Below are positions 6,845-42,532 of a DNA stretch of 52,890 bases, piece by piece. Location: positions 1 through 52,890 of the forward strand of contig DASVGF010000082.1 in the NCBI GenBank assembly GCA_036379675.1. Reading direction: 5' to 3'. How positions within the stretch are numbered: position 1 is the first letter of the stretch; each line of letters begins with the position of its first letter. A program made the translations under genes and the position numbers. Origin of the DNA: Gemmatimonadales bacterium (GTDB taxonomy: Bacteria; Gemmatimonadota; Gemmatimonadetes; Gemmatimonadales; GWC2-71-9). Below the pieces are notes generated by a model. That model had not been told where the DNA came from, made no database searches, and saw only the letters and a program-made list of their open reading frames with translations.

Positions 6845-8242
6845 TCAGCGGTCCACCCGGCGGCGAAACGCCTCCCGGCCAGCGCCGAGCGCAAACCAGG
6901 CGCAGAGGCCGGCAAGGACATACGCCGACTCCCGGGGCAGCGCCACGAAGAGCAGCCCCAGGGCAATGAAGATGGCGCTGATCGGTCCGAACACCGACCG
7001 GCGAGCATGGCCGACGATTGCCCGGAGGGCCAGCACGGTCCGGCGGCGCCGCTCGAGCGGGCTCCGGCGATGGGCCGTTCCCTCTACTTCGGGATCCTGG
7101 TGAGTCAGGACCGCCGGCAGCGCCTGGCTGATTCGCCTCGGCCCCCGAACCGGCCGGCTGGCCACCTCTCGGCTTCGCGCCACATCGCGGCGGAACTGAC
7201 CCTGCATGGCGTCGGCCAGCGCCCGGTCGTCGATCAGAACGTCCAGCTCGTAATTGCCCAGGAGACTCGAGGGATTCAGGTTGCTCGAGCCGATCCGCAC
7301 CCAGCGTTCGTCGCTCACGATGGTTTTGGCATGCAGCATGGGCCCTTCCCACTCGTAGATGCGGACTCCGCTCCGGAGGAGATCCCGGTAGCCGATCCTC
7401 GAGATGTTCCGGATCAAGGGGAGGTCGCTGGAGCCCGGAACGAGGAGGCGGACATCAACGCCGTCCCGCGCGGAATCACGGAGCGCCTGAAACAGACGTG
7501 GCGGCGCCATGAGATAGGCGTCGGTGATCCAGAGTCGCTCGACGCTGCCCGCGGCCAGCAGCTCGATGACCCGATAGGCGCGCTCTCTGCCGGGCTCGCC
7601 GCTGATGACCCGGATGTCGGCGCTCCCCTGCGGCGCCACCACGCCGGCTACCTGATCGGAGGGCACCCGGCCGCCGGCGACCTGCCACGCCGCCCCGAAG
7701 GTCTGGTCCAGCACCGCCGCCGCGGGCCCGGCGACGTCGACCGCCGTGTCGCGCCACGGCTGGCCGCCCGCGGTGCCCTCCCCGGTCCATTCGCAGCCGA
7801 TGCACAGCCCGCCGAGAACGGCGCGGGCTCCGTCGGCCACCACGAGCTTCCGGTGATTGCGGGACAGATTGGTGACGGCATCCATCAGCTGGGGCGGATG
7901 AAAGGCCCGCACTTCGACGCCGGCGTCGCGCAGGTGGCGCCAGAACTTGCGGCTGGTACCGAGCGAGCCGAACCAGTCATACAGCACTCGCACGTGGACT
8001 CCCTCCCGCGCCCGCTGGGCCAGCAGCTCTGCAAACCGCCAGCCGGCGTCATCGCTCCGGATGATGTAATTCTCGAAGTGGACCCAGCGGGTGGCCTGCG
8101 TGATCAGGTCGAGCATGGCCCGGTAGGTATTGGGCCCGTCGATGAGGAGGTGCACCTCGTTGCCCGGCACCGGACGGCCGCCCGCGGCCCGGTTGATGGC
8201 GGCTGCGACGGTCGGATCGGGCTCGGAGCGGACTGCCGTCAC
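6845..8242 (-). CDS. Phospholipase D / cardiolipin synthase family protein (ClsB-like) with C-terminal TM segments
   Basis: Two HKD motifs (NHRKLVVADG and LHAKTIVSDERWVRIGSSNLN). The GTG start overlaps the HD-gene stop (GTGA). Confidence 0.85.
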   Translation of the reverse strand: MTAVRSEPDPTVAAAINRAAGGRPVPGNEVHLLIDGPNTYRAMLDLITQATRWVHFENYIIRSDDAGWRFAELLAQRAREGVHVRVLYDWFGSLGTSRKFWRHLRDAGVEVRAFHPPQLMDAVTNLSRNHRKLVVADGARAVLGGLCIGCEWTGEGTAGGQPWRDTAVDVAGPAAAVLDQTFGAAWQVAGGRVPSDQVAGVVAPQGSADIRVISGEPGRERAYRVIELLAAGSVERLWITDAYLMAPPRLFQALRDSARDGVDVRLLVPGSSDLPLIRNISRIGYRDLLRSGVRIYEWEGPMLHAKTIVSDERWVRIGSSNLNPSSLLGNYELDVLIDDRALADAMQGQFRRDVARSREVASRPVRGPRRISQALPAVLTHQDPEVEGTAHRRSPLERRRRTVLALRAIVGHARRSVFGPISAIFIALGLLFVALPRESAYVLAGLCAWFALGAGREAFRRRVDR

Positions 8243-8820
8243 GGGGAGCCGAGCCCGAGCGCGCGCTCATGTGGCCGCAGCGCCCCGAGCACGAAGCCGA
8301 TGTGGTCGTCGAGCGAGACTCCCAACTCCTCGGCACCACGGGTCACGTCCTCACGGCTGACCCCGCGGGCAAACGCCTTGTCCTTGAGCTTCTTCTTGAC
8401 GCTGGAGACCTCGAGATCCTGCAGGCTGCGGGAGGGCCGTACCAGCGCGCAGGCCACCAGGAAGCCGGCCAGCTCATCCACGGCAAAGAGGGCCCGGGCC
8501 ATAGGGGTGTCGCGGGGGACGCCGCTGTAGTTGGCGTGCCCCAGAATCGCGCGCTGCATGGGCTCCGGGAGGCCCTGCGACGCCAGCACCCGCACGCCCT
8601 CGGCCGGATGCCCTTCGGTGGCCGAGTGTTCTGGGTTGGGGAAGCGCTCGTAATCGAAATCGTGCAGCAGCCCTACCAGGCCCCACGTCTCGGGGTCTTC
8701 GCCGGCCCGCTGCGCCATCGCGCGCATCGCAATCTCGACGGCGTACATGTGCTTCCGCAGCGCATCGGACACGGTGTACTCGTGCATGAGTGCCAGGGCG
8801 CGGTCGCGGCTCCAACTCAT
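8239..8820 (-). CDS. HD-domain (HDIG-like) phosphohydrolase
   Basis: ORF 8239..9096, trimmed to ATG 8820 behind GAGAGGGAAG. MSWSRDRALALMHEYT... with the HD motif GLLHDFDY. Confidence 0.8.
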   Translation of the reverse strand: MSWSRDRALALMHEYTVSDALRKHMYAVEIAMRAMAQRAGEDPETWGLVGLLHDFDYERFPNPEHSATEGHPAEGVRVLASQGLPEPMQRAILGHANYSGVPRDTPMARALFAVDELAGFLVACALVRPSRSLQDLEVSSVKKKLKDKAFARGVSREDVTRGAEELGVSLDDHIGFVLGALRPHERALGLGSP

Positions 8821-8830
8821 GGCTTCCCTC

Positions 8831-9175
8831 TCACTTCTCACCTTGCAGTTGAGGGTACCCGGCCGAGAGCGTGACGCGATTGGCCACCTCGCCATCGAGG
8901 CTGATCTCGAAGGCGTACTGGCCCGGGCGGGGGAGGGGCACGTCGAACACCAGTACGGCTCCGGCCTCGACGTCCACCACCCCGGCCGGAGGCTCGCCAA
9001 ACTGGACCGTGCCTTCTCCGCCCAGGAGCTCGGTTCCGGCTTCATCCACGAAACGAATGCGAATGGTATGGATCCCGATCTCGGTCCGGCGCCCACGCAC
9101 CCGTAGCACGAGGTGGGTGCGAGGGTAGACCGCGGGAAAGTTGGAGAGCCAGACGTGCTGAAACATGCCGAGCAC
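8831..9175 (-). CDS. Small conserved hypothetical protein (resembles the DUF6941-type fold family); the true N-terminus is probably upstream of the listed GTG
   Basis: ORF 8831..9175 starts at GTG. The 22 in-frame codons upstream (to 9241) read PLHLDFAVVADYALIDQQGKLS and look like genuine protein. See the finding on this region. Confidence 0.55.
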   Translation of the reverse strand: MLGMFQHVWLSNFPAVYPRTHLVLRVRGRRTEIGIHTIRIRFVDEAGTELLGGEGTVQFGEPPAGVVDVEAGAVLVFDVPLPRPGQYAFEISLDGEVANRVTLSAGYPQLQGEK

Positions 9176-9241
9176 GCTGAGCTTTCCCTGCTGGTCGATC
9201 AGGGCATAGTCGGCGACGACCGCGAAATCGAGGTGCAGGGG

Positions 9242-9691
9242 TCAGGTGACTCGGATGGATGTAATGACGTCGTTCTGCTTGATCTTGTTAACAACGTCCA
9301 TGCCTTCGGTGACCTGTCCGAAGACCGTGTGTACCTGGTCGAGATGCGGCTGCGGCGAGTGGGTAATGAAGAACTGGCTGCCACCGGTATCCTTGCCGGC
9401 ATGCGCCATCGAGAGCGTTCCCGTGGTGTGCTTATGAGTGTTCAGGTGGGTCTCGCATTTGATTTTGTAGCCGGGGCCGCCGGTGCCCACCCGGGGGTTT
9501 CCCGGCTCCTTGGAAAGCGGGTCGCCCCCCTGGATCATGAAGTTCGGGATGACGCGATGAAAGCGGGTGCCGTCATAGAACTCGCTGTTCGCCAGCTTCT
9601 CGAAGTTCCCGACTGTTCCCGGCACTTCGGTGTCGAAGAGGTCGGCCTTGATGGTGCCCTTGCTGGTCTCGATGGTTGCGCGCTTGGCCAC
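9242..9691 (-). CDS. Peptidyl-prolyl cis-trans isomerase, cyclophilin type
   Basis: [15 protein letters not shown] and [15 protein letters not shown] motifs. The likely GTG start at 9691 is 2 nt after the upstream stop. The ORF-track start 9736 would overlap the upstream gene by 43 nt. Confidence 0.9.
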
Positions 9692-9693
9692 GG

Positions 9694-11772
9694 TCAATCC
9701 TCGCAGAGAGAAAGTGCGGTCAAAGTGGCGGCCCACGCTGCCGGATCCTCGGCTGGCGGGCTGCAGGTAAATCCGGAGCAGGCGTATCCCCGGGGGGCCG
9801 TACCCGCTCCTACCATGCCCTCCAAGGCCGGAGGGAGCCGCCGCTCGCCCGCCTGCCGCGGCTCGATTCTCTGGACCGCGCGCCGTGGCAGGAACCCGGC
9901 CAACGCCTGGCGGTGCATGGTGTCCGCTGCCGGATCGTCGGCATTGCCCACCACCACGAGATGGGTGGCCGGATTGAGGTGCCAGTCCACTCCCAACAGA
10001 TAGGTGGCGGCGTAGAGCCCGAGCTCGCGGGCCCGGCCGGCAAAGGCTCGCAGCAGCTCTTCGCCGCGCTCCTGCCAGCGTACCTCGCCGGTGAGCTCAT
10101 GGAGCCGGGCGCAGACGATGCCCGCGACGCCGTTGGGTGATGGCGTCGGGGTGTCCTGCACCGGCTTGGCCCTGGTGGGCAGCAGGCCCTCGGCCTCCGG
10201 CCGGCCCCTGGCGGTGTCGAACAGGCCTCCGCCATCGGGGTCGCGGTAGTCGCTCGACACTCGCTCCATCAGCCGCTCGCTCCACTCGAGCCAGGACCGA
10301 TCCCCCGTGGCTTCGTACGCGTCCAGCGCGGCGGAAGCGGCCTGGACCTGGTCGTCGAGCAGGCCGGAGATGCCGCCTGGCGTATGGGCGACGGCGTCGG
10401 GCTCGCGGCTCTCGCGGCGGAGGCGGTCCAGCGTCTTCAGCGCGTGAGTGCGACTCCAGTCGTCACCCAGCACCGCGCCCGCGCGCAGCAGGGCGGAGGC
10501 CATCATCGCATTCCAGTTGGTGTACCTCGTCCGATCGATGAAGGGCGCCTGCCGGCGTGCCCGCTCGGCGCGCAGCTTCTCCTGCGCTGAACGCAGCAGC
10601 GCCTCCGTGGCTTCCTCGGTGCGGCCGCTCCGCAGGGATATGGCCGGCACCGTGGCCGAGACGAAGAGGACGTTCTTCCCGGGGTGGTGCTGCATTTCCC
10701 CGGCCGTCCCGATGTCGTAGTACGCGCCGGCGACTTCCATCTCTTCGGAACTCAGCACGGCTGCCGCCTCTTCCCGGGTCCAGGTGAAGTAGTCGCCGTC
10801 ATCCTCCAACCCCACGTCGGCATCCTGGCTGGCGGCGTAGCCTCCCTGGCGATCGGCCATCACCTCGCGGACCCAGCGGACGATCCCTCGCGCTACCTCG
10901 GCGTATTCCTCGGTGCCGAACAGCGCAAAGGCATCCAGATACACCTTCAGGAGCTCCGAGTTGTCGTAGGACATCTTCTCGAAGTGGGGAACGATCCACT
11001 TGGCGTCCACGCTGTAGCGGTGAAAGCCGCCGGCGAGCTGGTCGTACACGCCACCCCGCGCCATGCCCTGGAGGGTCCGGTCGATGATGGTGCGGACCGG
11101 TTCGGAGGGCTGATCGTGCCAGCGACTCAGCAGCAGACTGATTGCCCCGGGATGGGGAAACTTCGGTTGGCTTCCAAAGCCACCGTTGACTGGGTCGAAG
11201 ACCCGCGTCATCTGATCCACGGCTTCGTCGAGCAATTCGGACGAGAGGTCTCCGGGTGAGGCCTCGTTGAGATCCTCCTCCAGAACCCTCCGGATGGCTT
11301 GCGCCTGGGCCTGGATCTGGTCCCGACGCCCCCGATATGCCTCGAGCACTCCCGCCAGGACGGAGCGGAAGCCGGGCCGGCCGTACTTCCCGTCAGGGGG
11401 GAAATAGGTTCCCCCGAAGAAGACTTCACCCTCGGGCGTAAGAAAGGCCGTGAGCGGCCAGCCACCCTGCCGGGTCAGGGCCTGTACTGCCCGCTGATAG
11501 CGGGCATCCACGTCGGGTCGCTCGTCCCGGTCAACCTTGATGCACACGAAGTGCTGGTTGAGGAACTCGGCCAGCTCCGGATTCTCGTACGACTCGCCGT
11601 CCATGACATGGCACCAGTGGCACCAGACCGCACCGATGTCGAGCAACACCGGCTTGTCGGCTGCCGCCGCCGCCGCAAAGGCGGCTTCTCCCCAGGGATA
11701 CCAGTGAATCGGCTGATGAGCCGCGGACTGGAGATAGGCTGAGCCGGCCTCGGCCAGACGGTTGGTTGCCAT
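9694..11772 (-). CDS. Thioredoxin-domain protein (DUF255/YyaL family; N-acylglucosamine 2-epimerase-like C-terminal domain)
   Basis: 692 aa. N-terminal [19 protein letters not shown] thioredoxin-like CxxC, then a long alpha/alpha-toroid-like region. Confidence 0.9.
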
Positions 11773-11863: not shown

Positions 11864-12625
11864 ATGCTCGGACTGGAAGAATGGCTGGGCCGGGTCTTGG
11901 GCAGCAGCGGGATGCCGCTGACGGTGGCGGCCATCCTGGGCCTCCGCCACGCCACCGATCCGGACCACCTGACGGCGGTATCCACCCTGATTTTGGGGAA
12001 CCCCGGGAACGGTGCAAGGCGAGCGGGAACGCTGGGTCTGGCGTGGGGTCTCGGGCATGCCATGACGTTGCTGATCTTCGGCTTGCCGGCCGTGCTGTTT
12101 CGCCAGTACCTCCCGGCCGGCCTGCTCAGGGCCGCGGAGGTAGCCATCGGGGTGGCGATCACTTTCCTGGCCGGCCGGCTGCTGTTGCGCTGGGTGCGCG
12201 GGTCCTTCCACAGCCATTCGCACAGCCATAACGGCTTGGAGCACTCGCACCCGCATGTCCATGAGGCCGCCCACCACATGGCTGGGCACTCCCATTCGCA
12301 CGCCGAGAGCCTGGGGCGCTCACCGCTCGCCGCGTTCGGGATCGGCCTGGTTCACGGACTCGGCGGGTCTGCGGGGTGGGGAATTCTGGTGGTTGGCGCG
12401 GCGCCCTCCCAGTCTCACGCAGTTGCGGCGCTGGTTCTCTTTGCGGGCGGGACAGCGCTCTCGATGGCGCTGGTCTCCTGGACGTTCGGGTATGCCCTGG
12501 GGCGCCGGCCGGTGGCACGACGGATCACGTCCGTCGTGCCTCTCCTGGCCGGTGTGAGTCTGTTGTTCGGGGCCTGGTATGCGCTGGACGCGCTGGGTGG
12601 CTTGCCGCTACTTCTGCCGCAGTGA
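11864..12625 (+). CDS. Nickel/cobalt-type transporter family membrane protein with a His-rich loop
   Basis: ATG 11864 behind GGAGGA. LGLRHATDPDHL signature helix. Loop HSHSHSHNGLEHSHPHVHEAAHHMAGHSHSH. Multiple TM segments. Confidence 0.7.
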   Translation: MLGLEEWLGRVLGSSGMPLTVAAILGLRHATDPDHLTAVSTLILGNPGNGARRAGTLGLAWGLGHAMTLLIFGLPAVLFRQYLPAGLLRAAEVAIGVAITFLAGRLLLRWVRGSFHSHSHSHNGLEHSHPHVHEAAHHMAGHSHSHAESLGRSPLAAFGIGLVHGLGGSAGWGILVVGAAPSQSHAVAALVLFAGGTALSMALVSWTFGYALGRRPVARRITSVVPLLAGVSLLFGAWYALDALGGLPLLLPQ

Positions 12626-13048
12626 ATAGACGTACGCCGCCACTGCCTTCACGTCGTCATCGGTAAGCGCAGCGCCGCCTTTCGGTGGCATCGCGATGCC
12701 GCTCTTCGACTCTTCTTTCGGCACGCCGTGGATGACCTGGGCGGTGATCTCCTCCAGGGTCCCCTTGCTGTGGATCCAGGTGTCGTCGGCGAGACTCGGG
12801 GCTATGGAGCCCGCGCCCTTTGACCCGTGGCAGGCGTAACAGTTTCCCGGCCCGTTGAAGACGGCCTCTCCGCGGGCGACCAGAGCGCTGGCCGGCGACC
12901 CCGCATCCGTCGGGGCAGGTGCCGTGGTGTCCGACGCCTGCTTGGGCTGGCTGGTGGTCGAGGGGTCCGAAGTAGACTGGGCGGCCAGAGGTGCCGCTCC
13001 GGCCATCGCCAGCAAGGCGACGAGACCGAACTGAGACCGCATGTCCAT
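12608..13048 (-). CDS. Class I c-type cytochrome, secreted
   Basis: Signal peptide MDMRSQFGLVALLAMAGAAPLAAQ, heme motif CYACHG, and a distal Met region (GIAMPPKG). GGAG lies 7 nt before the ATG. The 3' end overlaps the convergent transporter gene by 18 bp. Confidence 0.8.
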   Translation of the reverse strand: MDMRSQFGLVALLAMAGAAPLAAQSTSDPSTTSQPKQASDTTAPAPTDAGSPASALVARGEAVFNGPGNCYACHGSKGAGSIAPSLADDTWIHSKGTLEEITAQVIHGVPKEESKSGIAMPPKGGAALTDDDVKAVAAYVYSLRQK

Positions 13049-14633: not shown

Positions 14634-14698
14634 GGGTCAAATAGATACGGCGGACTGCACAGCCTGACAAGGAGCGCCGTCACATCGGGCCGGTCCCC

Positions 14699-14727
14699 TT
14701 GGCATCTTCCGAGGGGCACACTACGAT
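14699..14727 (+). promoter_or_regulatory. Putative sigma70-type promoter for the selenoprotein-pfk unit
   Basis: TTGGCA (14699-14704), 17 nt, TACGAT (14722-14727), about 43 nt before ATG 14770. Confidence 0.3.
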
Positions 14728-14769
14728 TCGCGGCGGTTCCCTGTCGCCCTCGAACAAGGTGCTAGCCGG

Positions 14770-15006
14770 ATGCATGTGATTATCCAGTACTGCGTTGTCT
14801 GAAACTACCTTCCTCGAGCCACCGGTCTGGCGGCGGAGCTGAAGCAGGCTTATCCGGAGGCTGAGATCAAGCTGATCCAGTCGTCCGGGGGAGTGTTCGA
14901 CGTGACGGTGGACGGCAAACTGGTGTTCTCCAAGAAGGCCGCGCGGCGGCACGCCGAGCCGGGAGAGGTCCTGAAAGCAATCCAGCAGGCGATAGGCGGT
15001 CAGTGA
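14770..15006 (+). CDS. SelW/SelT/SelH (Rdx) family selenoprotein, 78 aa, with in-frame UGA (Sec) at 14800-14802
   Basis: Hand translation: MHVIIQYCVV[U]NYLPRATGLAAELKQAYPEAEIKLIQSSGGVFDVTVDGKLVFSKKAARRHAEPGEVLKAIQQAIGGQ*. The CxxU sits in the family's redox motif position, and GGVFDVTVDGKLVFSK matches the family core. Missed by the ORF track because of the TGA. The stop is 3 nt before the pfk ATG. Confidence 0.8.
14809..14844 (+). promoter_or_regulatory. Candidate bacterial SECIS stem-loop
   Basis: It begins 7 nt after the UGA. Paired segments are CUUC/GAAG, CUC/GAG and GCCA/UGGC. The apical loop CCGGUC carries GGU about 22-24 nt downstream of the UGA. Confidence 0.5.
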
Positions 15007-15009
15007 CCG

Positions 15010-16089
15010 ATGCGTATTGCCATCTCCACCGGAGGCGGTGACGCCCCCGGCCTGAACGCCGTCATACGCGCCGTGGTACTGTCGGCCCATAATCGCGGCT
15101 GGCAGACGTACGGTATCCAACGCGGCTACGAAGGCCTGCTCAACTTCAATGGGGTGGTGCCCCTGGGGCCGGCCCAGGTTCGCGGCATCACCCACCTCGG
15201 CGGCACCATTCTCGGCACGACCAATCGGGGCAACCCCTTCCGCTACGTAATGAAAAACGAGGCGGGGGAGGAGTACGAGATCGACCGCTCGGACGACCTC
15301 GTCGCGGCGTTCCAGGCGAGCGGGTTCGATGCGCTGGTCTCGATCGGCGGGGACGGCAGCTTGCAGATCTCGTACGAGCTCTGGAAAAAGGGCCTGCCGG
15401 TGGTCTGCGTTCCCAAGACCATCGACAATGACGTCAGTGGCACCCAGCGCACCTTCGGCTTCGACACCGCCGTCAGTACGGCCACCGAGGCCATCGACCG
15501 GCTGCACTCGACGGCGGAAAGCCACGACCGGGTGATGGTGGTCGAGCTGATGGGCCGCTACGCGGGATGGATTGCCCTGTACAGCGGCCTGTCCGGTAGC
15601 GCCGATGTCATCCTGCTGCCCGAGATTCCGTTCGACATCGAAAAGGTTGTGGCCAAGATCCGGAGCCGCGAGGCTCAGGGTCGGCGCTTCAGCATCGTGG
15701 TGGTGGCTGAGGGTGCGCGGTCAAAGGACGGCGCCATCGAGCTGGTCGAGCGGCGCGGAGTCGGTACGGTGGACCGTCTGGGGGGAATCGGCAGCAAGGT
15801 GGCGCGGGCCATTGAGTACCACACCGGCAAGGAAACCCGGACACTGGTGCTCGGCCACCTGCAGCGGGGGGGCTCACCCACCACCTACGACCGGCTCCTC
15901 GCGCTTCGTTTTGGCGCCGCCGCGGTGCGCGCTGTGGGCGAAGGAGCCTTCGGCGTCATGGTGGGGCTCAAGGGACCGGGCATCGAGCAGATCCCGCTGG
16001 AGGAGGTAGTAGGCAAGCCCAGAAACGTTCCGCTCGACTCCGACACCATCGCCACCGCGCGTGAGCTCGGAATCAGCCTGGGGGACTGA
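15010..16089 (+). CDS. pfkA: ATP-dependent 6-phosphofructokinase
   Basis: MRIAISTGGGDAPGLNAVIRAVV, IGGDGSLQ, VPKTIDND and MGRYAGWIAL motifs. 359 aa. Confidence 0.9.
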   Translation: MRIAISTGGGDAPGLNAVIRAVVLSAHNRGWQTYGIQRGYEGLLNFNGVVPLGPAQVRGITHLGGTILGTTNRGNPFRYVMKNEAGEEYEIDRSDDLVAAFQASGFDALVSIGGDGSLQISYELWKKGLPVVCVPKTIDNDVSGTQRTFGFDTAVSTATEAIDRLHSTAESHDRVMVVELMGRYAGWIALYSGLSGSADVILLPEIPFDIEKVVAKIRSREAQGRRFSIVVVAEGARSKDGAIELVERRGVGTVDRLGGIGSKVARAIEYHTGKETRTLVLGHLQRGGSPTTYDRLLALRFGAAAVRAVGEGAFGVMVGLKGPGIEQIPLEEVVGKPRNVPLDSDTIATARELGISLGD

Positions 16090-21731: not shown

Positions 21732-22175
21732 CTACGCTCCCGGCTTCCGTGCCGGGCGGCCGGGCGACAGCTTGGCGTCGCTCCGTCCCTTCACGTAGGC
21801 GTAGATCTTCTCTATGGTGGGAAGCTCCATGCCGAGGGCGCACCATGACGGCATGCCGTTGGCGGGGCGGCCGGCACATACGGTCTGGACGAACAGCTCT
21901 TTGGTATTGACCGGCCCCTCGGGCTTGAGGGACAGGATCAGATGGGGGGCAATGGTGGTGCCCAGGACGTCCTCGCCGTGGCACCGGGCGCAGTTCAGGT
22001 TGTACTGCTTCCATCCGTCGTACACTTCCTGGGAGACGGTGTCACGAGGCGCCGAATGGTACTGGTCCCGGAGCTCCTGGGCGCCGGCGGCCGGCGCCGT
22101 GGCGCTCCCCAGACCCAGCAGGATGACGGTTGCCAGCAGGACATGCCGGACGGTGATCGGGAGGGGCGTACGCAT
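21732..22175 (-). CDS. xoxG: Methanol-metabolism-type c-type cytochrome (XoxG/cytochrome cL-like; four-Cys type)
   Basis: Signal peptide, heme motif CARCHG, and two extra conserved Cys (VCAGRPANGMPSWC). It sits directly downstream of xoxJ. Confidence 0.8.
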   Translation of the reverse strand: MRTPLPITVRHVLLATVILLGLGSATAPAAGAQELRDQYHSAPRDTVSQEVYDGWKQYNLNCARCHGEDVLGTTIAPHLILSLKPEGPVNTKELFVQTVCAGRPANGMPSWCALGMELPTIEKIYAYVKGRSDAKLSPGRPARKPGA

Positions 22176-23282: not shown

Positions 23283-25100
23283 TTACTTGCCCGCGGCCCA
23301 GGGGTTCTTGAGCGCGAACACGGTCAAGACGCCACCCTGATTGCTGAAGTTCCCCGCGTCGCCGAACGCGCCGAGCGCGCCCAGACCGGCAGTGGGATCT
23401 TCCGCGCCGATGCCGGCGGCGACGCCGATACCGGCCCAGCCACCGATGCCCGAGAGCACGGCCACATACTGCTGGCCATCGGGTCCGTTGTAGGTCATCG
23501 GGTTGCCGATGATGCCCGACGGGGTCTTGTACTGCCACAAGGTCTTGCCGGTCTTCTGGTCAAGCGCCTTGAGCCAGCCTTCCATGGTGCCGTAGAAGAC
23601 CACGCCGCCCGCCGTGGTGAGCGCCCCGCCGTACGCCGCGAGGTTCTCCTTGTTCGACCACACCGCCTTGCCCTTCATCGGGTCCCAGGCGATGAAGTTG
23701 CCACGGTGCCCACCGGGGCCCGGGAACATCCGCACGATCGCGCCGACGTACGGCTGACCGGCGGTGTACTTCACCTCGACGCCTTCATAGTCCATGCAGA
23801 TGTGGTTGGCGGGGACGTAGAAGAGGCCGGTGATCGGCGAATACGCCGACGGCTGCTGATCCTTGAAGCCGATCGCCGCGGGGCAGATGCCCTCGGTGTT
23901 CTTCTTCGAGGTGGTGCCGTACTTCGGATCCCGCTCCGGCACGCCCGTGGTCAGATCCACCCGCTTGGCCCAGTTGACCGGACCGTAGGGCTGCGCCACA
24001 ATCAGCTTGCCGTTGGTGCGGTCGAGCGTGTAGCCGAAGCCGTTACGGTCGAAGTGCGCCAGCAGCTTCTTGCCGCCGCTCTCGAAGAGGATGTTCTCGT
24101 TCACGCCGTCGTAGTCCCACTCATCGTGCGGCGTCATCTGGTAGGCCCACTTCACCTTCCCGTTGTCCGGGTTGCGGGCGAAGATGGTCATGGACCACTT
24201 GTTGTCGCCCGGCCGCTGATCGGGGTTCCAGCTGCCCGGGTTCCCGGTGCTGTAGTAGAAGAGGTTCAGCTCGGGGTCGTAGGAGTACCAGCCCCAGGTG
24301 GTGCCGCCGCCCCGCTTCCACTCGTCACCCTGCCAGGTCGACACGCCGAGGTCCTTGCCCTTGTGGGAAGGATAGTTGGCGTTGGCGTCGCCCTCGATCA
24401 GGACTTCGCTGTCGGGACCGGTGCTGTAGCCCCGCCAGACTTCCTTGCCGTCGTTGACGTTGTACGCCGTGACGCGGCCGCGGACGCCGAACTCACCGCC
24501 CGAGATACCGGCGATGACGATGTCCTTGATCACGATCGGGGCGTTCGTCATGGTGCTGCCCTGCTTGTAGTCGGCGTTCTTCACCTTCCACAACTCTTTG
24601 CCGGACTTGGCATCGAGGGCGAGCAGCTCACCCTGCAGCAGCTGGATGAAGATCTTGCCGCTGGGGTGATACGCGGTCCCACGGTTGACCAGGTCGCAGC
24701 ACGCGATTGGAATCGCGTCCGGCGACTGATTGGGCACGTGCTTCCAGATCAACGGCGCGCCGGGCTTCGACAGATCGAGCGCGTACACGATGTTCGGGAA
24801 GGACGTGTGGACGTACATCACGTTGCCGATGACGAGCGGGTTGCCCTCGTGCCCCCGAAGCGTCCCGGTCGAGAACGACCAGACGGGCCGGAGCTCGGCC
24901 ACGTTCGACGTCGTGATCTGCTTCAGCGGGCTGAACCGCTGGAGACTGAAATCACGACCAGTCATGTGCCATTCGCCCTCGGGTGCGTTCTGGGTCCAAG
25001 CCCCAGACCGCGCCTGCTGGGCGTCGGCTGACAGCGCTACGGCTAGCGAAAGACCCGCAGCGAGCCCGCCGGACACCACCTTCTGCGCAACACGGTTCAT
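23283..25100 (-). CDS. xoxF: PQQ-dependent methanol/ethanol dehydrogenase, XoxF (lanthanide-dependent) type
   Basis: ORF 23283..25427, trimmed to ATG 25100 (GAGG upstream; signal peptide MNRVAQKVVSGGLAAGLSLAVALSADAQQ). Vicinal disulfide PIACCDLVNRG, tryptophan-docking propeller pattern, and HDEWDYDGVNE with the extra Asp (DYD). Confidence 0.95.
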   Translation of the reverse strand: MNRVAQKVVSGGLAAGLSLAVALSADAQQARSGAWTQNAPEGEWHMTGRDFSLQRFSPLKQITTSNVAELRPVWSFSTGTLRGHEGNPLVIGNVMYVHTSFPNIVYALDLSKPGAPLIWKHVPNQSPDAIPIACCDLVNRGTAYHPSGKIFIQLLQGELLALDAKSGKELWKVKNADYKQGSTMTNAPIVIKDIVIAGISGGEFGVRGRVTAYNVNDGKEVWRGYSTGPDSEVLIEGDANANYPSHKGKDLGVSTWQGDEWKRGGGTTWGWYSYDPELNLFYYSTGNPGSWNPDQRPGDNKWSMTIFARNPDNGKVKWAYQMTPHDEWDYDGVNENILFESGGKKLLAHFDRNGFGYTLDRTNGKLIVAQPYGPVNWAKRVDLTTGVPERDPKYGTTSKKNTEGICPAAIGFKDQQPSAYSPITGLFYVPANHICMDYEGVEVKYTAGQPYVGAIVRMFPGPGGHRGNFIAWDPMKGKAVWSNKENLAAYGGALTTAGGVVFYGTMEGWLKALDQKTGKTLWQYKTPSGIIGNPMTYNGPDGQQYVAVLSGIGGWAGIGVAAGIGAEDPTAGLGALGAFGDAGNFSNQGGVLTVFALKNPWAAGK

Positions 25101-25678
25101 AACTAACCTCAGGGAAAAGGGTGATTCTCCTGCTCTACTGCCATTCGTGTCATGACGCGGAAACACTGACTGCTCGCTACAGGGCTGCCACCTGCGCCGG
25201 ACGCCCCACCGGAGGACTGCGCTCGACCATCGGGAGCATCCACCGCCGCAGCGCCGCTCTGGCGCGGCCAGCCGGCCGATGGGAGCTCGCGCGAGGATGA
25301 GACAGGGACCGATGATGGGTGAGGCGGGAGAAGGCCGACAATTGGAGCGCGGGGACAGACCTGCAGAGGTGCATCGCCAAGGCGGAGCGCCGCCAGTATT
25401 CCTCTGGCCAGCGGCCACACGCCGCATTGACTCGCGACGGGTTCAGCATCGATGAAATAGTTCCACCGAACGGGAACAAGCCCATTTCATCCCTCAGCGA
25501 CGCCACTGAACTACATGATGTATCAGTAATGGACCAGACTCGAGGAGGCGGCCGCCATCGCGTGCTTCAGACCGCCGTGGGGTTCTCAGGTTCCTCCCCG
25601 AAAGGGGAGCGGGCCAGCGCGATGGGCTTGCCTCTCAAAAACCTGCCAGTTCGCCGATTACGGGAGACTAGGGGGGTC

Positions 25679-27883: not shown

Positions 27884-29370
27884 GACTCGCGACTCTCGAC
27901 TAACGTCTCAATCAATCCGCGCGCCTTGTCCAGCGTCTCCCGGTATTCCAGCTCGGGATCCGAATCGGCCACGATGCCCCCGCCTGCCTGGAAGTATATC
28001 TGCCCGCGGAGAGCCAGATAGGTGCGGATGACGATGCTGGTGTCCATGGCGCCGGTGGCGCTGATGTAGCCGATAGACCCGCAGTACACGCCCCGCTGGG
28101 TAGGCTCGAGCTCCGCGATGATCTCCATGGCGCGCACCTTCGGCGCGCCGGTGATCGAGCCACCCGGGAAGGCGGCGCGGATCACGTCCGCCGCATCGGC
28201 ACCCGGCTCCAGCTCCCCTATGACGGTCGAGACCAGGTGATGCACCGTCGGGTGATGCTCCAGGGCAAAGAGCTCGGGGACCCTGACGGTGCCCGGCCGG
28301 CACACGCGGGAGAGGTCGTTCCGCAGGAGATCCACGATCATCACGTTCTCGGCCCGATCCTTTTGACTCTCAGCCAGGGCCCGGCCCAGCGCCGCGTCGT
28401 GCATGGGGCCGAGTCCCCGGGGCCGGGTGCCCTTGATGGGACGGGTCTCGATGCTGCGCCGGTCTCCATCCAGCCGGAGGAACCGCTCGGGTGAGGCGCT
28501 CACCACCGCCATGTCAGCGAAATCGAGATAGGCGGCAAACGGCGCCGGGTTGTGTCGCCGGAGCCGGCGATACAGGTCGAACGGCGGCTCATCGAGACGC
28601 CCTTCGAACCGCTGGGACAGGTTGGCCTGAAAGATGTCGCCGGCGACGATGTAGTCGCGCACCCGGGCGACGGCGTCGAGATATCCGCGATGGGTAAAGG
28701 TGGAGCGCAGTCCGATCTTTTCTGCCGCTTCGATCCCGGCAACAGGGTAGGAGGGCGCCAGCCCGGTCGGGGGCAATCCCGGTATGCCTCCCCGCTTCCC
28801 CGCTTCCCCTCCTACCCGCTTACCCCTCAGGCGCTCCCGGACCATGGCCAGCCGCTCTCGCGCCCGGGCCTCCTGGGACGCCCCGGTCTCGGGGAGTCCG
28901 GTTGAGATCACCCATGCCTGGCCGGCCCGGTGGTCCCACGCGATCACCCAGTCGTACAGACCGAGCACGACGTCGGGTATGGCGAGGTCATCGTACCGCG
29001 GACGGGGCAGCCGTTCGAGCACCGCGCCCCAGTCGTAGCCGATGTATCCCGCAAGGCCGCCCTGAAATGGCGGAAGGCCAGGCAGCGGGGCCGCCGGCTC
29101 GGCCGGCAACACGCCCCGGGCGACCGCGAGCGCGTCACCAGTGACGCCGGCCCATACTCCGTTCTGAAGAACTTCGGTGCTGGCGCCTTTGCTCCGTACC
29201 ACCCGCACCGGGTCTGCGGCGAGAAAGGAGTACTGGGCATCGGGGTGCTGCTGCATGGCGGCGCTGTCGAGCAACAGCACGTAGGGAAGATCGAGGAACT
29301 GAGCGCACACCTGCACTGGATCCAGCATCCCGCCAAGGGGCTCGGCCAGCGGTCGGGAGCCGGTGCTCAT
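27880..29370 (-). CDS. pabB: Aminodeoxychorismate synthase component I (chorismate-binding enzyme)
   Basis: SPERFL, PIKGTRPRG, FPGGSITGAPK and YCGSIGY motifs. The ATG overlaps the upstream stop (ATGA). Confidence 0.85.
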   Translation of the reverse strand: MSTGSRPLAEPLGGMLDPVQVCAQFLDLPYVLLLDSAAMQQHPDAQYSFLAADPVRVVRSKGASTEVLQNGVWAGVTGDALAVARGVLPAEPAAPLPGLPPFQGGLAGYIGYDWGAVLERLPRPRYDDLAIPDVVLGLYDWVIAWDHRAGQAWVISTGLPETGASQEARARERLAMVRERLRGKRVGGEAGKRGGIPGLPPTGLAPSYPVAGIEAAEKIGLRSTFTHRGYLDAVARVRDYIVAGDIFQANLSQRFEGRLDEPPFDLYRRLRRHNPAPFAAYLDFADMAVVSASPERFLRLDGDRRSIETRPIKGTRPRGLGPMHDAALGRALAESQKDRAENVMIVDLLRNDLSRVCRPGTVRVPELFALEHHPTVHHLVSTVIGELEPGADAADVIRAAFPGGSITGAPKVRAMEIIAELEPTQRGVYCGSIGYISATGAMDTSIVIRTYLALRGQIYFQAGGGIVADSDPELEYRETLDKARGLIETLVESRES

Positions 29371-30878
29371 CCTCCCGAGGCCTTGCTGCCCCGGCGCCCC
29401 GCTGCCCCCTGGCTCGATGGCTCCGGGCCGGCTCCGCCGCCCCGCTTCCTCGACCGCTGCGTCAGCTTGACGTGCTCCGACTTGACGTCGTCCGGCGGGG
29501 TGAGATACCCCCAGCTCAGGGCGCCTTCCTGCCGATAGGTCTTGCCCAGCGTGATGGCCAGCCGGGCCTTCATCAGCTCACGCCCGAGATAGAAGGCGTG
29601 GGTTGCCTCCTCGACGCCGAGCCGGCCGAAAATCTCCTGGATGTCGGTGCCGCGGATGAACAGCTCGTTGTTGAAGACCGTGATGGTGTGCCGGTCGGTG
29701 AAGATCCGGAAGTTCGGGTCTGTCACCTCCGCGTGCAGCCGCCGGAGCTCGGCCTCGTCGTATTCCAGGACCGCCGGATCCTTCACGGTCAGGAGCCGAT
29801 CATCCACGCCTTTCGGAAGAGTGCGATGAGTCACCGCGTGGTGCATGAGGCGGCGGGCGATGTCCACCTCCTTCACCGCCCCGCGAGCCCAGGGGATCAC
29901 CTCGGTGGTGAGCACGGCCCGCACCCCGGTCTCCTCGCACAGGGCCAGCAGCAACGCGTTCACCCCGGTGGTATCGGCGCTGGTAAGCTCGGTGATGTTG
30001 CCGATGCCCATGAGCTGCGCCGCCTCCGGATAGCGGCGGTGTACTTCGGCGTAGCGCTCGAGCGACGCCATGAAGCCGAAGCCGATCGGCTCGATGACCG
30101 GGTCGATGAGATAGGGGACCCGCCATTGCTCCAGCTGCGCGATGTTGCGGCCGAGCGACTCCAGCCCTTCGCCGAAGTCGGGAATGACCACGACGCGGGC
30201 TCCGGTGCCCGGGAGCTCCCGGGCTGCCTCCAGGTTGCTGCCGTTCACACTCAGCACCAGCTCGGCGCCTGCGGCCACCGCGGTGCGGATCTCGGCCGGA
30301 TCGAAGCTGTCCACGCTGACCCGCATGCCGGCCTGGCGCAGCTCCCGCACCACGTCGGCCAGCTCGGGAAAGGGAACTCCCGGCGTGCAGCCGATATCGA
30401 TCAGGTCGGCCCCGCTCGACTGGAAGTAGTCGGCGGCGGCCCGGATCTCGGCTCGCGAGAGCTTGGGCGCGTTGTTGATCTCGGCCAGGATCTCGATGGA
30501 ATAGGCGCCGTAGTCGGGAGCTGCCGCCTGCTGGCCGAAATAGCGGGGAATCTCCCGCAGATCCTTGGGCCCCTTCTCCACCCTCACGCCGAATCGATCC
30601 CTCAGCACCGCCGTGTCGCCCTCGCAGAGACCGGGAATCAGCACCAGGTCGGTGTCGGGAGGAACCTCGAGGAACCGGGCGATCCAGGGTGTGGTCATCA
30701 GCGCCGCCACGGTGATCTTCATGACGGCGACATCGGGCTCGAACGGCGGCTGCATCTCGCGAAGCACCCGGCGCAGTGCCGGCTCCGCCAGCTTGCCGGT
30801 AACGAAGAGGACACGGCGGTAAGGCGGTAAGGCGGTAGGACGGCCAGACTCCGAGCCGGCATCGGCCGTTGTGCCCAC
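29367..30878 (-). CDS. Dihydropteroate-synthase-like protein of H4MPT biosynthesis (DUF6513 N-domain plus pterin-binding domain)
   Basis: 503 aa, GTG start 30878. RRVLFVTGKLAEPALRRVL N-domain, then a pterin-binding TIM-barrel-like region (ADLIDIGC..., SVDSF...). Low-complexity basic tail. Confidence 0.85.
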   Translation of the reverse strand: MGTTADAGSESGRPTALPPYRRVLFVTGKLAEPALRRVLREMQPPFEPDVAVMKITVAALMTTPWIARFLEVPPDTDLVLIPGLCEGDTAVLRDRFGVRVEKGPKDLREIPRYFGQQAAAPDYGAYSIEILAEINNAPKLSRAEIRAAADYFQSSGADLIDIGCTPGVPFPELADVVRELRQAGMRVSVDSFDPAEIRTAVAAGAELVLSVNGSNLEAARELPGTGARVVVIPDFGEGLESLGRNIAQLEQWRVPYLIDPVIEPIGFGFMASLERYAEVHRRYPEAAQLMGIGNITELTSADTTGVNALLLALCEETGVRAVLTTEVIPWARGAVKEVDIARRLMHHAVTHRTLPKGVDDRLLTVKDPAVLEYDEAELRRLHAEVTDPNFRIFTDRHTITVFNNELFIRGTDIQEIFGRLGVEEATHAFYLGRELMKARLAITLGKTYRQEGALSWGYLTPPDDVKSEHVKLTQRSRKRGGGAGPEPSSQGAAGRRGSKASGG

Positions 30879-32138: not shown

Positions 32139-32891
32139 GTGCAGCTGCTCGTCAGTGTCAGGTCGGCCGCGGAGGTAGCACCCGCCCTGGCGGGGGGCGC
32201 CGACATCATCGATGCCAAGGAGCCTGCCCGAGGGCCGCTTGGAGCGGTGGCCGCGGATGTCATGGCCGAAGTACTCGCCCGGGTGCCGGAGGATCGCCGG
32301 TTCAGCGCGGCTCTGGGCGACCTCTCCACTGAGGAGGACGTCCTCCGCGCGTTCGGCTCGGTGCGGTTGGCCCCCAGGCGCGCCGCGGTGTATCTGAAGG
32401 CAGGATTCGGAGGAGTCTCGTCGGCCACCGTGCTGAGCCGGCTGCTCGACTGCGCGATCGAGGCGGCGGCGCGTCATCCCGGGTACCCGCGTCTGGTGGC
32501 GGTGGCCTACGCCGACCGGGCCGGCTTTCTCCCTCCGGCGGACCTGGCCCAGCGGGCAGCCTACGCCGGCGCGGCCGGAGTGCTGCTCGACACGTACCAC
32601 AAGGACGGGCGCGGGTTGTTCGGGTCGATGACTCCTGATGCCGTAGCCGCGTGGGTGGCGGGGGTCCGAAGGTTGGGCCTCCTTGCAGCCGTGGCGGGTG
32701 AGATCGGGCTGGCCGACATGGAAACGGTGCAGGCACTGGGGGTGGATATCGTGGGGGTACGAGGTGCCGCGTGCGAGGGGGGTAGGGGAGGCACGGTATC
32801 CGCTCAGCGGGTGACGGAGCTCCGCCTGCGGATGACCCCCAACGCTTTCGGGCTGTCTTCGATTGGGGGCAAGGCCGAGGGGTTGTCCTGA
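32139..32891 (+). CDS. mfnB: (5-formylfuran-3-yl)methyl phosphate synthase (methanofuran biosynthesis)
   Basis: GTG start behind AAGGGAG. MQLLVSVRSAAEVAPALAGGADIIDAKEPARGPLGA, typical of the MfnB/DUF556 family. Confidence 0.8.
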   Translation: MQLLVSVRSAAEVAPALAGGADIIDAKEPARGPLGAVAADVMAEVLARVPEDRRFSAALGDLSTEEDVLRAFGSVRLAPRRAAVYLKAGFGGVSSATVLSRLLDCAIEAAARHPGYPRLVAVAYADRAGFLPPADLAQRAAYAGAAGVLLDTYHKDGRGLFGSMTPDAVAAWVAGVRRLGLLAAVAGEIGLADMETVQALGVDIVGVRGAACEGGRGGTVSAQRVTELRLRMTPNAFGLSSIGGKAEGLS

Positions 32892-39045: not shown

Positions 39046-39894
39046 TCAGCGATCCCATCCGCCTTCAAGTATAACAACGAACAATGCGGCACATGTCAGG
39101 TCCGCGGTGGTGCCGGGATTGCGCCGGTTGCGTGGATCGCGGAGCTCCGCATCGAGCGCGAGCAGCCCTTTCCGGCCTTTTACGGAGCGGGTCCCACCGC
39201 TCGCTCTGATCTCGCGCGCCCGCTGCGATACCTTTTCGGCCTCGGCCGGACCGAGCTTCCGCGCGATGTGGGTATCCACCGACGCGTCCAGCAGCGCCAG
39301 GTACGCGTCGATGGCGGCTTCGGTCCACGCCAGCCCTTCCTGCCGCGCCGCACGAATGGCCGGTACCCCGACCTCGAAGGTCAACCGGAAGTCGTTGGTA
39401 TACTCCCGCGCGACGGCGTCTCGCCGGGCCGCGAGCGCCATGGCTTCGCGCAGGGTGACGCTCGGCGCGGCTGACACGTCCTCCTCGGCGGATTGCCCGA
39501 GCCCACCAGGGTTGGCCCCCCGGATGGCGGCGTACACATTCGACGCATCCTCGACCGTGGTCTCCGCCAGCACCCGCGAGAGCCGCTCCCGCAGGCTGCC
39601 GCCGGAGCCGAGCGCGGCCCGGGCCAGGGGTGCCAGCAGGAGGACGATGCCGAGATTGGTATTCGACCGGGTCCACCGCAAGGTGGCGTCCACCGCCGTG
39701 CGGATCGTAGCCCCCAGCGGGTTCTCGGCGGCGCCGGCCAGTGCGGGTCCGATGGCCACCGCGCTCGCCAGGAAATCCTCGTACCGGGTGTCGTGAAAGT
39801 GGCGCTCGGGCGACACGTTCCCGGGCTTGGGTGCGCTCACCTCCAGCAGGCACGCCAGCTGGCCGGCGGCGGCCACTTCGGCCGGCGTGGTCAC
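39046..39894 (-). CDS. Triphosphoribosyl-dephospho-CoA synthase (CitG/MdcB) family protein of H4MPT clusters
   Basis: C-terminal 282 aa of ORF 39046..40728. The GTG at 39894 overlaps the mptN stop (GTGA). LACLLEVSAPKPGNVSP...TNLGIVLLLAPL...NPGTTADL. Confidence 0.8.
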   Translation of the reverse strand: MTTPAEVAAAGQLACLLEVSAPKPGNVSPERHFHDTRYEDFLASAVAIGPALAGAAENPLGATIRTAVDATLRWTRSNTNLGIVLLLAPLARAALGSGGSLRERLSRVLAETTVEDASNVYAAIRGANPGGLGQSAEEDVSAAPSVTLREAMALAARRDAVAREYTNDFRLTFEVGVPAIRAARQEGLAWTEAAIDAYLALLDASVDTHIARKLGPAEAEKVSQRAREIRASGGTRSVKGRKGLLALDAELRDPRNRRNPGTTADLTCAALFVVILEGGWDR

Positions 39895-40760
39895 CGACGC
39901 CGGCTGGCGACGAAATCGAGGAGCCGGCCGGCCACGTCCAGACCGGTCGCCTCCTGGAGCCCCTTCCACCCGGGTATGCCGTTTACCTCGAGCACATACA
40001 TCGTTCCACTCTGGTCCGCCAGCAGATCCACGCCGGCGTAGTCTGCACCCACGGCGGCCGCGGCACGCACCGCCAGCGCACAGGACTCGTCCGGCAGAGC
40101 GATGCTTCGGGCGGTGCCGCCCCGGGCGAGATTCGTGCGCCACCCGGTTGAGCGCCGCTCGATGGCGCCCAGCACCCGGCCGCCGACCACGAAGGCGCGG
40201 ATATCCACTCCGCCATGGTCGATGACTTGCTGGAGGTAGTACACGCCGCGGATCTGCTCGATCGTCTTGAAGACCCGAAACGCCATTTCCTCGTCGCTGA
40301 CCCGAACCATGCCGAGTCCCATGGAGCCGAAGAGCGGCTTGACGATCACGTCGCCCAGGGCGCGAAAGGCGGCGAACGCCTCCTCGGGGTTCTCGCAGAT
40401 CACCGTCGCGGGCGTGGGGATGCCGCACTGCTCCAGCAGGGCCGAGGTCCAGAACTTGTCCACCGTCCGCTCGATGGCGCGGGGTGAGTTGATCACCGGC
40501 ACACCCCGGTCCTCCAGCCGGTGCAAAGCATCCACCCGGAAAATGATCTGCTCCAGCGACCCGGACGGAATGATCCTGGCGAGCACGGCATCTACCCCGT
40601 CCAGCTCGATGCTGCGGCTGCGAAGGCCTGAGGCCGGTCCGATAGACGCCGCCAACCCCTCGTACGGGAGCACAATGGCTTCGTGCCCCCGTTCCCCCGC
40701 GGCCCTTTCGAGCTCCCGGGTGTGCCACCCGGGTCGGGCGGCCAGGACGGCGACGCGCAA
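39891..40760 (-). CDS. mptN: RimK-type ATP-grasp ligase (tetrahydromethanopterin:alpha-L-glutamate ligase-like)
   Basis: 289 aa. MRVAVLAARPGWHTRELERAA..., VIVKPLFGSMGLGM, and GADYAGVDLL...YVLEVNGIPGW. Confidence 0.85.
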   Translation of the reverse strand: MRVAVLAARPGWHTRELERAAGERGHEAIVLPYEGLAASIGPASGLRSRSIELDGVDAVLARIIPSGSLEQIIFRVDALHRLEDRGVPVINSPRAIERTVDKFWTSALLEQCGIPTPATVICENPEEAFAAFRALGDVIVKPLFGSMGLGMVRVSDEEMAFRVFKTIEQIRGVYYLQQVIDHGGVDIRAFVVGGRVLGAIERRSTGWRTNLARGGTARSIALPDESCALAVRAAAAVGADYAGVDLLADQSGTMYVLEVNGIPGWKGLQEATGLDVAGRLLDFVASRRR

Positions 40761-41551: not shown

Positions 41552-42532
41552 TTAGGTGTACAGCGATGCTTCAAGCACTTCGGGGTTGAGGTGTCCCGCA
41601 TGGAACGTTCTGCCGGTCTCGGTACTGGTGAGCCAGACCTCGGCCGGGCTGAACAGCAGCGGATCGATCTTGTAGAAATCTCCGCCGTAGCGCTGAAAGA
41701 TCTCGTAGAACGGGGTGCCGTAGTCCCGTGAGGCGCTGGCCGGAACCTTCTCGGCCAGCTGCTCCAGCTCGGCGTCGCCGGCGCGAATGGTAAAGCGGGC
41801 CTGGCCGCCGTACAGTATGCAGTCGTTGGTGCGGCCGATCGCCCGAAGATCGTTCTTGGCCACGGGAGGCAACGGGGCCGTTCCCATGGCGCTGATGACC
41901 CGCCGCACATCGAATCCCAGCGTTTCCATCTTGTGCAGGCCGGTCTCGACGATGCGGGCGGAAATCTGCACCCCTCCCGCCAGGCTGGCGGTGGGCGCCA
42001 CAACGAAGGTGATCTGCATTGGCTGCAATCGCGCCTTGTCGGCCACCCACTGGGCCACCTCATCGGTGGGGAGGGTACGGCCCTCGAGCACCAGCACGCC
42101 TTCGTCGGCCTGTTCTTCGTAGCCCAGCTTCTCGAAGAGCTCGCGCTCCACCCGGGCGTGCGCCCGAAGGGGCCCGGAGCCCATCGCGAAGAATTTGCCT
42201 ACCGAGATTGCCCACCCCGCGTACTGGGATGCCATGCACGCCACGGCGGGATGGTCGGTCCAGACAATCAGGCCGGGGTGAGAGTTACCTCCGATCTGCA
42301 CCGGCGTGCAGCTGACGTTGCCGAGGCCGCCCAGGCAGATTTCGGCCAGCGCCAGCCCGGCCTCGATGCCCCCCTCCACTTCCACCCCCGCGTCGATGAC
42401 CCGCGCGCCGCTGGGCAGCCGGTGGGTCTGGGCCCGAAGCATGTCCGACTCATCGGCCATGTGGTCGGCGATTTCCACTGCCGCTTCGTTCATTCGAAGT
42501 GCGGTCATTCGGAGTGCGGTCACGCTGTCCAT
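41552..42532 (-). CDS. mch: Methenyl-tetrahydromethanopterin cyclohydrolase
   Basis: 326 aa. ATG 42532 behind AAGGGAGAG, overlapping the fhcC 3' end by 13 nt. Typical Mch sequence (GARVIDAGVEVEGGIEAGLALAEICLGGLG...). Confidence 0.9.
   Translation of the reverse strand: MDSVTALRMTALRMNEAAVEIADHMADESDMLRAQTHRLPSGARVIDAGVEVEGGIEAGLALAEICLGGLGNVSCTPVQIGGNSHPGLIVWTDHPAVACMASQYAGWAISVGKFFAMGSGPLRAHARVERELFEKLGYEEQADEGVLVLEGRTLPTDEVAQWVADKARLQPMQITFVVAPTASLAGGVQISARIVETGLHKMETLGFDVRRVISAMGTAPLPPVAKNDLRAIGRTNDCILYGGQARFTIRAGDAELEQLAEKVPASASRDYGTPFYEIFQRYGGDFYKIDPLLFSPAEVWLTSTETGRTFHAGHLNPEVLEASLYT
42491..42520 (-). repeat. 15-bp tandem duplication at the mch 5' end
   Basis: cattcgaagtgcggt / cattcggagtgcggt (one mismatch). 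It encodes TALRM-TALRM and creates two additional in-frame ATGs. Confidence 0.7.

Follow-up and report, generated by a model that had tools for sequence, protein, structure and literature searches.

A conserved SelW-like gene with a probable in-frame selenocysteine codon upstream of phosphofructokinase in Gemmatimonadales

A contig of 52,890 nucleotides from a Gemmatimonadales bacterium (GenBank assembly GCA_036379675.1, contig DASVGF010000082.1), referred to here in its entirety as the window, carries on its forward strand at positions 14770-15006 a coding frame with a TGA after its tenth codon. We conclude that this is very probably a genuine gene for a SelW-like thiol-selenol oxidoreductase with the active site Cys8-x-x-Sec11, where Sec is selenocysteine, and that the gene is mis-annotated elsewhere. 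The data presented below directly support membership of the family, a conserved UGA, selection acting before and after that codon, and RNA-level constraint on a downstream hairpin resembling a selenocysteine insertion sequence (SECIS).

Translation of 14770-15006 (+ strand) gives MHVIIQYCVV-TGA-NYLPR...GGQ-TGA, a coding sequence for a 78-residue SelW-like protein of the Rdx family, made up of ten codons from the start ATG at 14770, the UGA at 14800-14802 as the presumed selenocysteine codon, 67 further open codons, and a stop TGA at 15004-15006. Cys8 is encoded by the TGC at 14791-14793, and the redox motif C-V-V-U (TGC GTT GTC TGA) occupies 14791-14802. The start, the internal TGA, the 67 open codons beyond it and a 3-nt gap to the downstream phosphofructokinase gene (pfk) had all been proposed in an earlier, sequence-only reading of this DNA, and all are borne out: the terminal TGA ends at 15006 and the pfk ATG lies at 15010. 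A Shine-Dalgarno-like AAGGTG (14756-14761, + strand) stands 8 nt 5' of the ATG, and the divergent intergenic region upstream contains a weak candidate sigma-70-like promoter, TTGGCA-17-TACGAT (14699-14727, + strand), recognised by its match to the consensus; the promoter scan returned 1 site against 0.1 expected from shuffled sequence. The window has a GC content of 67%, and GC at third codon positions (GC3) is about 0.8-0.9 in its confident genes. The two halves of the candidate gene show GC3 of 0.70 and 0.79 against second-position values (GC2) of 0.10 and 0.42, which fits the coding signature of the window. A 281-aa open reading frame (ORF) on the opposite strand (14680-15525) was considered and rejected; because it has no Pfam match and overlaps the genuine pfk, we regard it as a shadow ORF of the kind typical of high-GC DNA. 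A scan of the window for other coding frames interrupted by TGA gave only adjacent genes that happen to lie in one frame.

With the internal TGA (U) modelled as Cys for profile searches, the product matches the Pfam family Rdx (PF10262) at 77.8 bits (cutoff 22.6; E = 7.5e-22), residues 2-72 aligning with positions 1-73 of the 74 in the profile. It also matches the NCBIfam equivalog NF041051, "SelT/SelW/SelH family (seleno)protein", at 100 bits (cutoff 88), and TIGR02174, "CXXU_selWTH", at 63 bits (cutoff 34.2). Eight solved Rdx-family structures match the product by sequence, and in residue-level alignments with the best three (2fa8, E = 1e-10; 2ljk; 3dex) their CxxC, read as CTQC, CEPC and CTQC respectively, sits exactly on C8...U11. 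The assignment to the Rdx/SelW family made in the sequence-only reading is thus upheld by hidden Markov model (HMM) matches across residues 2-72, and its placing of the TGA at the second redox residue agrees with the second Cys of the CxxC in the solved structures; because that CxxC falls on C8...U11, the alignment does place the TGA in the redox column. From its similarity in sequence to these eight structures, the product is predicted to adopt a thioredoxin-like beta-alpha-beta-beta-beta-alpha fold, and the CxxC/CxxU motif of the family suggests a redox function.

Orthologs were drawn from a scan of species-representative genomes that yielded 437 relatives, of which the best 80 loci were retained; counts over 81 below refer to these 80 loci plus the window. 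All 80 come from metagenome-assembled genomes of Gemmatimonadales/Gemmatimonadota, apart from one 1.7-kb contig labelled Methylomirabilota. That contig (L014, JAKEHP010000462.1, 1746 nt), which carries an ortholog with 76% identity and was binned as 'Candidatus Methylomirabilota', is probably mis-binned. TGA is present at the aligned codon in 80/80 orthologous loci as well as in the window, and all are collinear, with the conserved context M/V-x-V-x-I-x-Y-C-V-V before the TGA and N-Y-x-P-R-A after it in 80/80. The Cys8 codon is TGC or TGT in 81/81. Counting from the TGA, the alignment is free of indels over 51 nt, and the 50 codons that follow contain no other stop. The start codon lies at the same aligned position throughout (ATG in 69, GTG in 12 of the 81), with a Shine-Dalgarno-like motif at -18 to -4 in 61/81. 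The ratio of nonsynonymous to synonymous differences (pN/pS; Nei-Gojobori counts, pS ~0.6-0.7) is 0.25 over codons 2-10 and 0.10 over codons 5-10 upstream of the TGA, and 0.28 over 50 codons downstream. As pN/pS is low on each side, both sides of the TGA must be translated in one frame and held by purifying selection. The expectation of the earlier reading that relatives would be conserved through and past the TGA, and that Cys- or Sec-containing homologs would align through it, is thus borne out, the Cys forms being those in the Protein Data Bank and one homolog (P0001/L081, 68% identical) that has TGC at the same codon.

This homolog lies on a metagenome contig (ENA, k141_1222465), where two tandem Rdx genes precede pfk within positions 1-560. 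The leading gene, a Sec form, reads MSELVIEYCGM-TGA-GYQ... and carries a hairpin of its own, GCCGCC-GGUCU-GGCGGC, and the second is the Cys form, ...EYCTA-TGC-NYY...; their first nine residues (MSELVIEYC) are the same. By its sequence the pair looks like a recent duplication accompanied by a Sec-to-Cys conversion.

Purifying selection on both sides of the TGA bears directly on the possibility that the window holds a pseudogene, that is, an earlier CxxC Rdx gene that lost its function through a nonsense mutation. In the window taken alone, an in-frame stop ten codons into the gene does resemble an inactivating mutation, and the hairpin of the window, described below, is one of the two weakest among the 81. 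In one relative (L082, positions 698-922 of a 1-kb contig of GCA_033612675.1) the TGA codon is CGA (Arg), giving C-V-T-R and destroying the redox motif; this single case on a short contig may reflect a faulty assembly, a copy in decay or a variant. Across relatives, on the other hand, the TGA is shared by 81/81 species-level sequences, the frames show neither frameshifts nor extra stops, and pN/pS is ~0.25-0.28 on both sides, a combination incompatible with neutral decay. On these grounds we treat a pseudogene as excluded and leave the idea almost no credence.

The same selection is a strong argument against a truncated gene model, which is the form in which most relatives are currently annotated. 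A protein search gave 418 relatives, of which the best 120 were examined. Among these, 115 are 55-64 aa gene models starting at L/M-A-A-E-L-K, just past the position of the TGA, and lack the CxxU motif and with it the active site, even though many bear the JGI name "selT/selW/selH-like putative selenoprotein"; of the others, one genuinely has Cys at this position and another has Arg. If these models were right, the TGA would be a genuine stop, the product would be a C-terminal fragment of about 59 residues beginning at the Leu of L-A-A-E-L-K, and the ten codons before the TGA would be a leader, untranslated or separately translated. Besides the annotations themselves, the occurrence of CTG, TTG or GTG as codon 20 in all sequences favours this. 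The ten upstream codons, however, are strongly purified in the same frame and carry the I-x-Y-C-x-x motif of the family, and they follow the conserved ATG/GTG and Shine-Dalgarno-like motif at the position of 14770. The fragment would also lose strand beta-1 and the whole redox motif, which lie inside the stretch matched by Pfam. The window itself has CTG, which initiates poorly, as codon 20, and in this frame just one ORF is listed on the + strand, of 37 aa from the GTG at 14893 (14893-15006). We therefore find a truncated product highly improbable and retain the full-length reading through the UGA.

Directly downstream of the UGA lies a conserved hairpin with the features of a bacterial SECIS. 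Its core, at 14817-14835 (+ strand), consists of a 7-bp helix and a 5-nt loop: the 5' arm at 14817-14823, the loop GGUCU at 14824-14828 and the 3' arm at 14829-14835, corresponding to alignment columns 18-24 paired with 30-36 around loop columns 25-29. Across 80 distinct sequences 94.1% of helix cells are paired. Covariation in the helix is 0.201 against 0.094 ± 0.008 in shuffles, with 0/500 shuffles reaching the observed value, and when the pairing partners are slid by 1-3 columns it does not exceed 0.098. Most informative is pair 18-36, which links the Arg16 and Ala22 codons at their synonymous third positions and is AU in 49 sequences, GC in 23, CG in 2, GU in 1 and UG in 1, with 4 unpaired. 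On a neighbour-joining tree made from the product of the neighbouring pfk gene, at least 6 independent changes were counted at column 18 and at least 11 at column 36, yet 70/74 sequences were still paired, which 0/10,000 permutations reach. Compensatory changes that alter amino acids occur as well (L038, GCUACC/GGUAGC; L041, GCCAUC/GAUGGC), and the synonymous rate is 0.33 in stem codons versus 0.62 elsewhere in the gene. The evidence from synonymous sites separates constraint on the RNA from constraint on the protein encoded by the stem.

The loop is similarly restricted. Its codon is GGT in 38 sequences, AGT in 39 and an Arg codon in 4 (AGG 3, CGG 1), and never GGC, GGG, TCN or AGC despite a GC3 of ~0.84. 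The loops are GGUCU (38), AGUUU (30), AGUCU (9) and three rarer variants, and the family pattern is N-G-[U/G]-Y-U, with G at loop position 2 in 81/81 and a following U in 77/81. The spacing from UGA to loop is fixed at 21 nt, and the minimum free energy is at or below -7.5 kcal/mol in 81/81 (-13.9 kcal/mol in the window for the 48 nt after the UGA). A published model of the bacterial SECIS specifies a loop of 3-9 nt at a distance of 16-37 nt from the UGA, with G as its first or second nucleotide, an upper stem of 4-16 bp, and a minimum free energy of -7.5 kcal/mol or lower (PMC13188914); the present hairpin falls within these limits in its 5-nt loop, its 7 bp (in the family), its G at positions 1-2, its 21-nt spacing and its energy. 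The bacterial SECIS geometry and the GGU 22-24 nt downstream, both proposed in the sequence-only reading, are accordingly confirmed, the GGU lying at 14824-14826 when counted from the A of the UGA. The stem-loop as first drawn there, 14809-14844 (+ strand), fared less uniformly: it does fold in the window (-12.2 kcal/mol) and contains the conserved core, but its lower half, in which 14809-14815 pairs with 14836-14844, is a peculiarity of the window and not conserved in orthologs. Tried as a conserved element, the extended stem was rejected, with column pairs 11-44, 12-43 and 15-38 present in only 1/80, 9/80 and 20/80 sequences. An Rfam search of the window gave no match at gathering thresholds, only noise at E up to 10, and no bacterial SECIS model was matched.

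Several observations weigh against a functional SECIS and selenocysteine in this gene, and the first group concerns the hairpin. That of the window forms 5/7 core pairs, with mismatches A14817/G14835 and A14821/C14831, and at -7.6 kcal/mol, where the family averages -12.4, it is among the two weakest mentioned above; it is also no more stable than dinucleotide shuffles (z = +0.8 to +1.0). The A·C mismatch (14821/14831) arises from a Thr codon and, as 23/80 sequences have it, is evidently tolerated. Because the hairpin is thermodynamically ordinary in sequence of 67% GC, its significance comes from the comparison of orthologs only. RNAalifold, used alone, prefers a different and weak 4-bp helix that lacks covariation; it is the 7-bp helix that beats the shuffled and slid controls. 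The Cys-form copy on the tandem contig retains 6/7 stem pairs, so the stem must be held in part by the encoded peptide P-R-A-A-[GS]-L-A-A-E. An Rfam search of the window gave no match at gathering thresholds, only noise at E up to 10, and no bacterial SECIS model was matched.

The second group concerns the machinery for selenocysteine. No selA, selB, selD or tRNA-Sec was found in the 52.9 kb of the window by ARAGORN, by Rfam or by Pfam applied to 40 ORFs lying outside the selW-pfk block, ARAGORN found no tRNA in the 60 syntenic loci, out of 80, to which it was applied, and we found no documentation of the selenocysteine trait in Gemmatimonadota in the literature, the supplement of Peng et al. 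2016 included. We nonetheless infer that the machinery is present, since without it a UGA conserved across the order together with a covarying SECIS would be difficult to account for.

The failure to find the machinery in these sequences also lends some weight to decoding of the UGA without selenocysteine, either by a near-cognate or suppressor tRNA as Trp, Cys or Gly or through a lineage-specific change of the code, as do three full-length public gene models (P0002-P0004) in which the TGA is rendered as Trp and the motif reads C-V-V-W. TGA, however, terminates 22/35 confident genes in the window and is the terminal stop of the SelW-like gene itself in 68/80 orthologs; because it ends these genes, it has not been reassigned and must be read according to local context. 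The codon in question, moreover, lies at the catalytic Cys/Sec position of a family in which many members are proven or predicted to contain Sec, and it is followed at a fixed distance by a hairpin with a SelB-type G-U loop under RNA-level selection; a simple leaky stop would need no such hairpin. Decoding without selenocysteine thus appears very unlikely, and a selenocysteine codon remains the reading we adopt.

In the mechanism we propose, translation would start at the ATG at 14770, and when the ribosome reaches the UGA at 14800-14802 the downstream hairpin (14817-14835, loop GGUCU) would be bound by SelB carrying Sec-tRNA(Sec), so that selenocysteine would be inserted in place of termination. 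The second TGA (15004-15006), which has no such hairpin, would terminate translation. Actual insertion of selenocysteine and binding of SelB are what we infer from the conservation described above.

The archetype of such bacterial hairpins is that of Escherichia coli fdhF (NC_000913.3), which is likewise a coding-region hairpin directly after the UGA with an apical GGUCU. The GGUCU of fdhF lies at +22 to +26 (G22-U26), whereas that of the window gene lies at +25 to +29, one codon (3 nt) further downstream. In the fdhF loop, G23 and U24 are contacts of SelB; their counterparts in the SelW-like family are the invariant G and the U found in 77/81. The fdhF loop has 4 nt and is closed by A-U, whereas that of the window family has 5 nt and is closed by C-G, and, unlike in fdhF, no conserved bulged U was found in the 5' arm of the 7-bp helix and no conserved lower stem leads back to the UGA.

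At the level of the protein, SelW-like proteins, catalogued in bacteria by Zhang, Gladyshev and colleagues, outnumbered every other selenoprotein family in the Sargasso Sea data, where 48 genes were counted (PMC1088965), and are listed in many bacterial selenoproteomes (PMC1794560). Like these bacterial CXXU proteins, the product described here is a small single domain of ~75-80 residues with C-x-x-U after an N-terminal beta-strand, an in-frame UGA with a hairpin directly downstream, and a presumed redox role; it differs in its lineage, Gemmatimonadales, and in its conserved place before pfk, the relation being drawn by HMM score. NF041051 is named after Campylobacter, whereas the window gene is from Gemmatimonadales. 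The Cys-form Rdx proteins of known structure (Atu0228, 2fa8; SAV_2001, 3dex; the PA/BB homologs 2oka, 2ojl and 2obk) align over residues 3-73 and share Y-C-x-x-C-x-[WY]-x-x-R-A, but contain Cys instead of Sec and, at 103-108 aa, exceed the product described here by ~25 residues; they also show W-x-R/K in place of the F-S-K-K of the clade of the window. Mammalian SelW (mouse, 2npb) and MIEN1/C17orf37 (2ljk) belong to the same Rdx fold family and carry CxxU/CxxC in the same place, although the sequence similarity to 2npb is weak (E = 0.0065). Eukaryotic SelW also relies on a SECIS of the kink-turn type in the 3' untranslated region and on SBP2/eEFSec, whereas the window gene has its hairpin in the coding region. 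Bacterial CXXU SelW-like proteins with a coding-region SECIS have been known for ~20 years, and the lineage and the operon context are what appears to be new. Since the gene family, the CxxU motif and the recoding mechanism are all long established, the finding is not a conceptual advance.

In Gemmatimonadales the SelW-like gene opens a conserved unit in which pfk and a prolyl-oligopeptidase gene follow it. In the window, pfk (15010-16089, + strand; Pfam PFK, E = 2e-104) is the downstream cistron, and it follows directly on the same strand in 77/80 loci; the two genes are 3 nt apart in 26 loci, 1 nt apart in 17, and overlap in others. In 64 loci prolyl oligopeptidase comes next; on the upstream side, 68 have a divergent OmpA-like gene. 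At 15004-15012 the window reads TGA-CCG-ATG, with the terminal TGA in frame with the pfk ATG, and read-through would fuse the two proteins; because other loci show 1-nt gaps or overlaps, this in-frame arrangement is not conserved. The tight coupling to pfk is the only unexpected feature of the gene. It raises the idea that the SelW-like selenoprotein serves phosphofructokinase specifically, as its redox partner or as its regulator, which we consider unlikely.

The window also holds features away from this unit. Upstream, a 253-aa predicted membrane protein with a long His-rich loop (HSHSHSHNGLEHSHPHVHEAAHHMAGHSHSH) is encoded at 11864-12625 (+ strand); it has no Pfam match at E <= 1e-5, adjoins a DUF255 thioredoxin-domain protein (9694-11772) and a c-type cytochrome (12608-13048), and is kept upstream in 19 syntenic loci. 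On the - strand at 8834-9736, an ORF for a cyclophilin-type peptidyl-prolyl isomerase (9242-9736) ends in TGA and is followed by 136 codons in the same frame with a GC3 of 0.80, like that of coding sequence; this stretch overlaps the N-terminal part of an ORF for an HD-domain protein (8239-9096), and the gene boundaries and starts here are uncertain.

Further downstream, mostly on the - strand, positions 21732-50870 form a large island for tetrahydromethanopterin-linked one-carbon metabolism (formaldehyde oxidation) in what is apparently a Gemmatimonadales genome. It includes a pyrroloquinoline quinone (PQQ) dehydrogenase (23283-25427) with a c-type cytochrome (21732-22175), Fae (50223-50870), an MtdB-like gene (49257-50129), Mch (41552-42532), Ftr/FhcD (43278-44180) and an FhcA-like amidohydrolase (44177-45796). 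The biosynthesis of tetrahydromethanopterin and methanofuran is represented by 4-HFC-P synthase (32139-32891), RimK-like (39891-40760), CitG-like (39046-40728) and DUF6513/pterin-binding (29367-30878) genes, a set that also includes DUF1464 and PTPS.

Once the gene models are corrected, most Gemmatimonadales appear to possess an intact redox protein, and the 81 aligned sequences provide an indel-free test set for the bacterial SECIS with covariation at synonymous sites. The result implies that the Gemmatimonadales, a widespread soil order for which we found no such documentation in the literature, use selenocysteine. If the link to phosphofructokinase were true, it would tie glycolytic flux to selenium and to the thiol redox state, and would offer a first way into the function of the bacterial SelW-like proteins, long uncharacterised as a family; an abundant and largely aerobic soil order would then keep the whole selenocysteine machinery partly or mainly for one protein.

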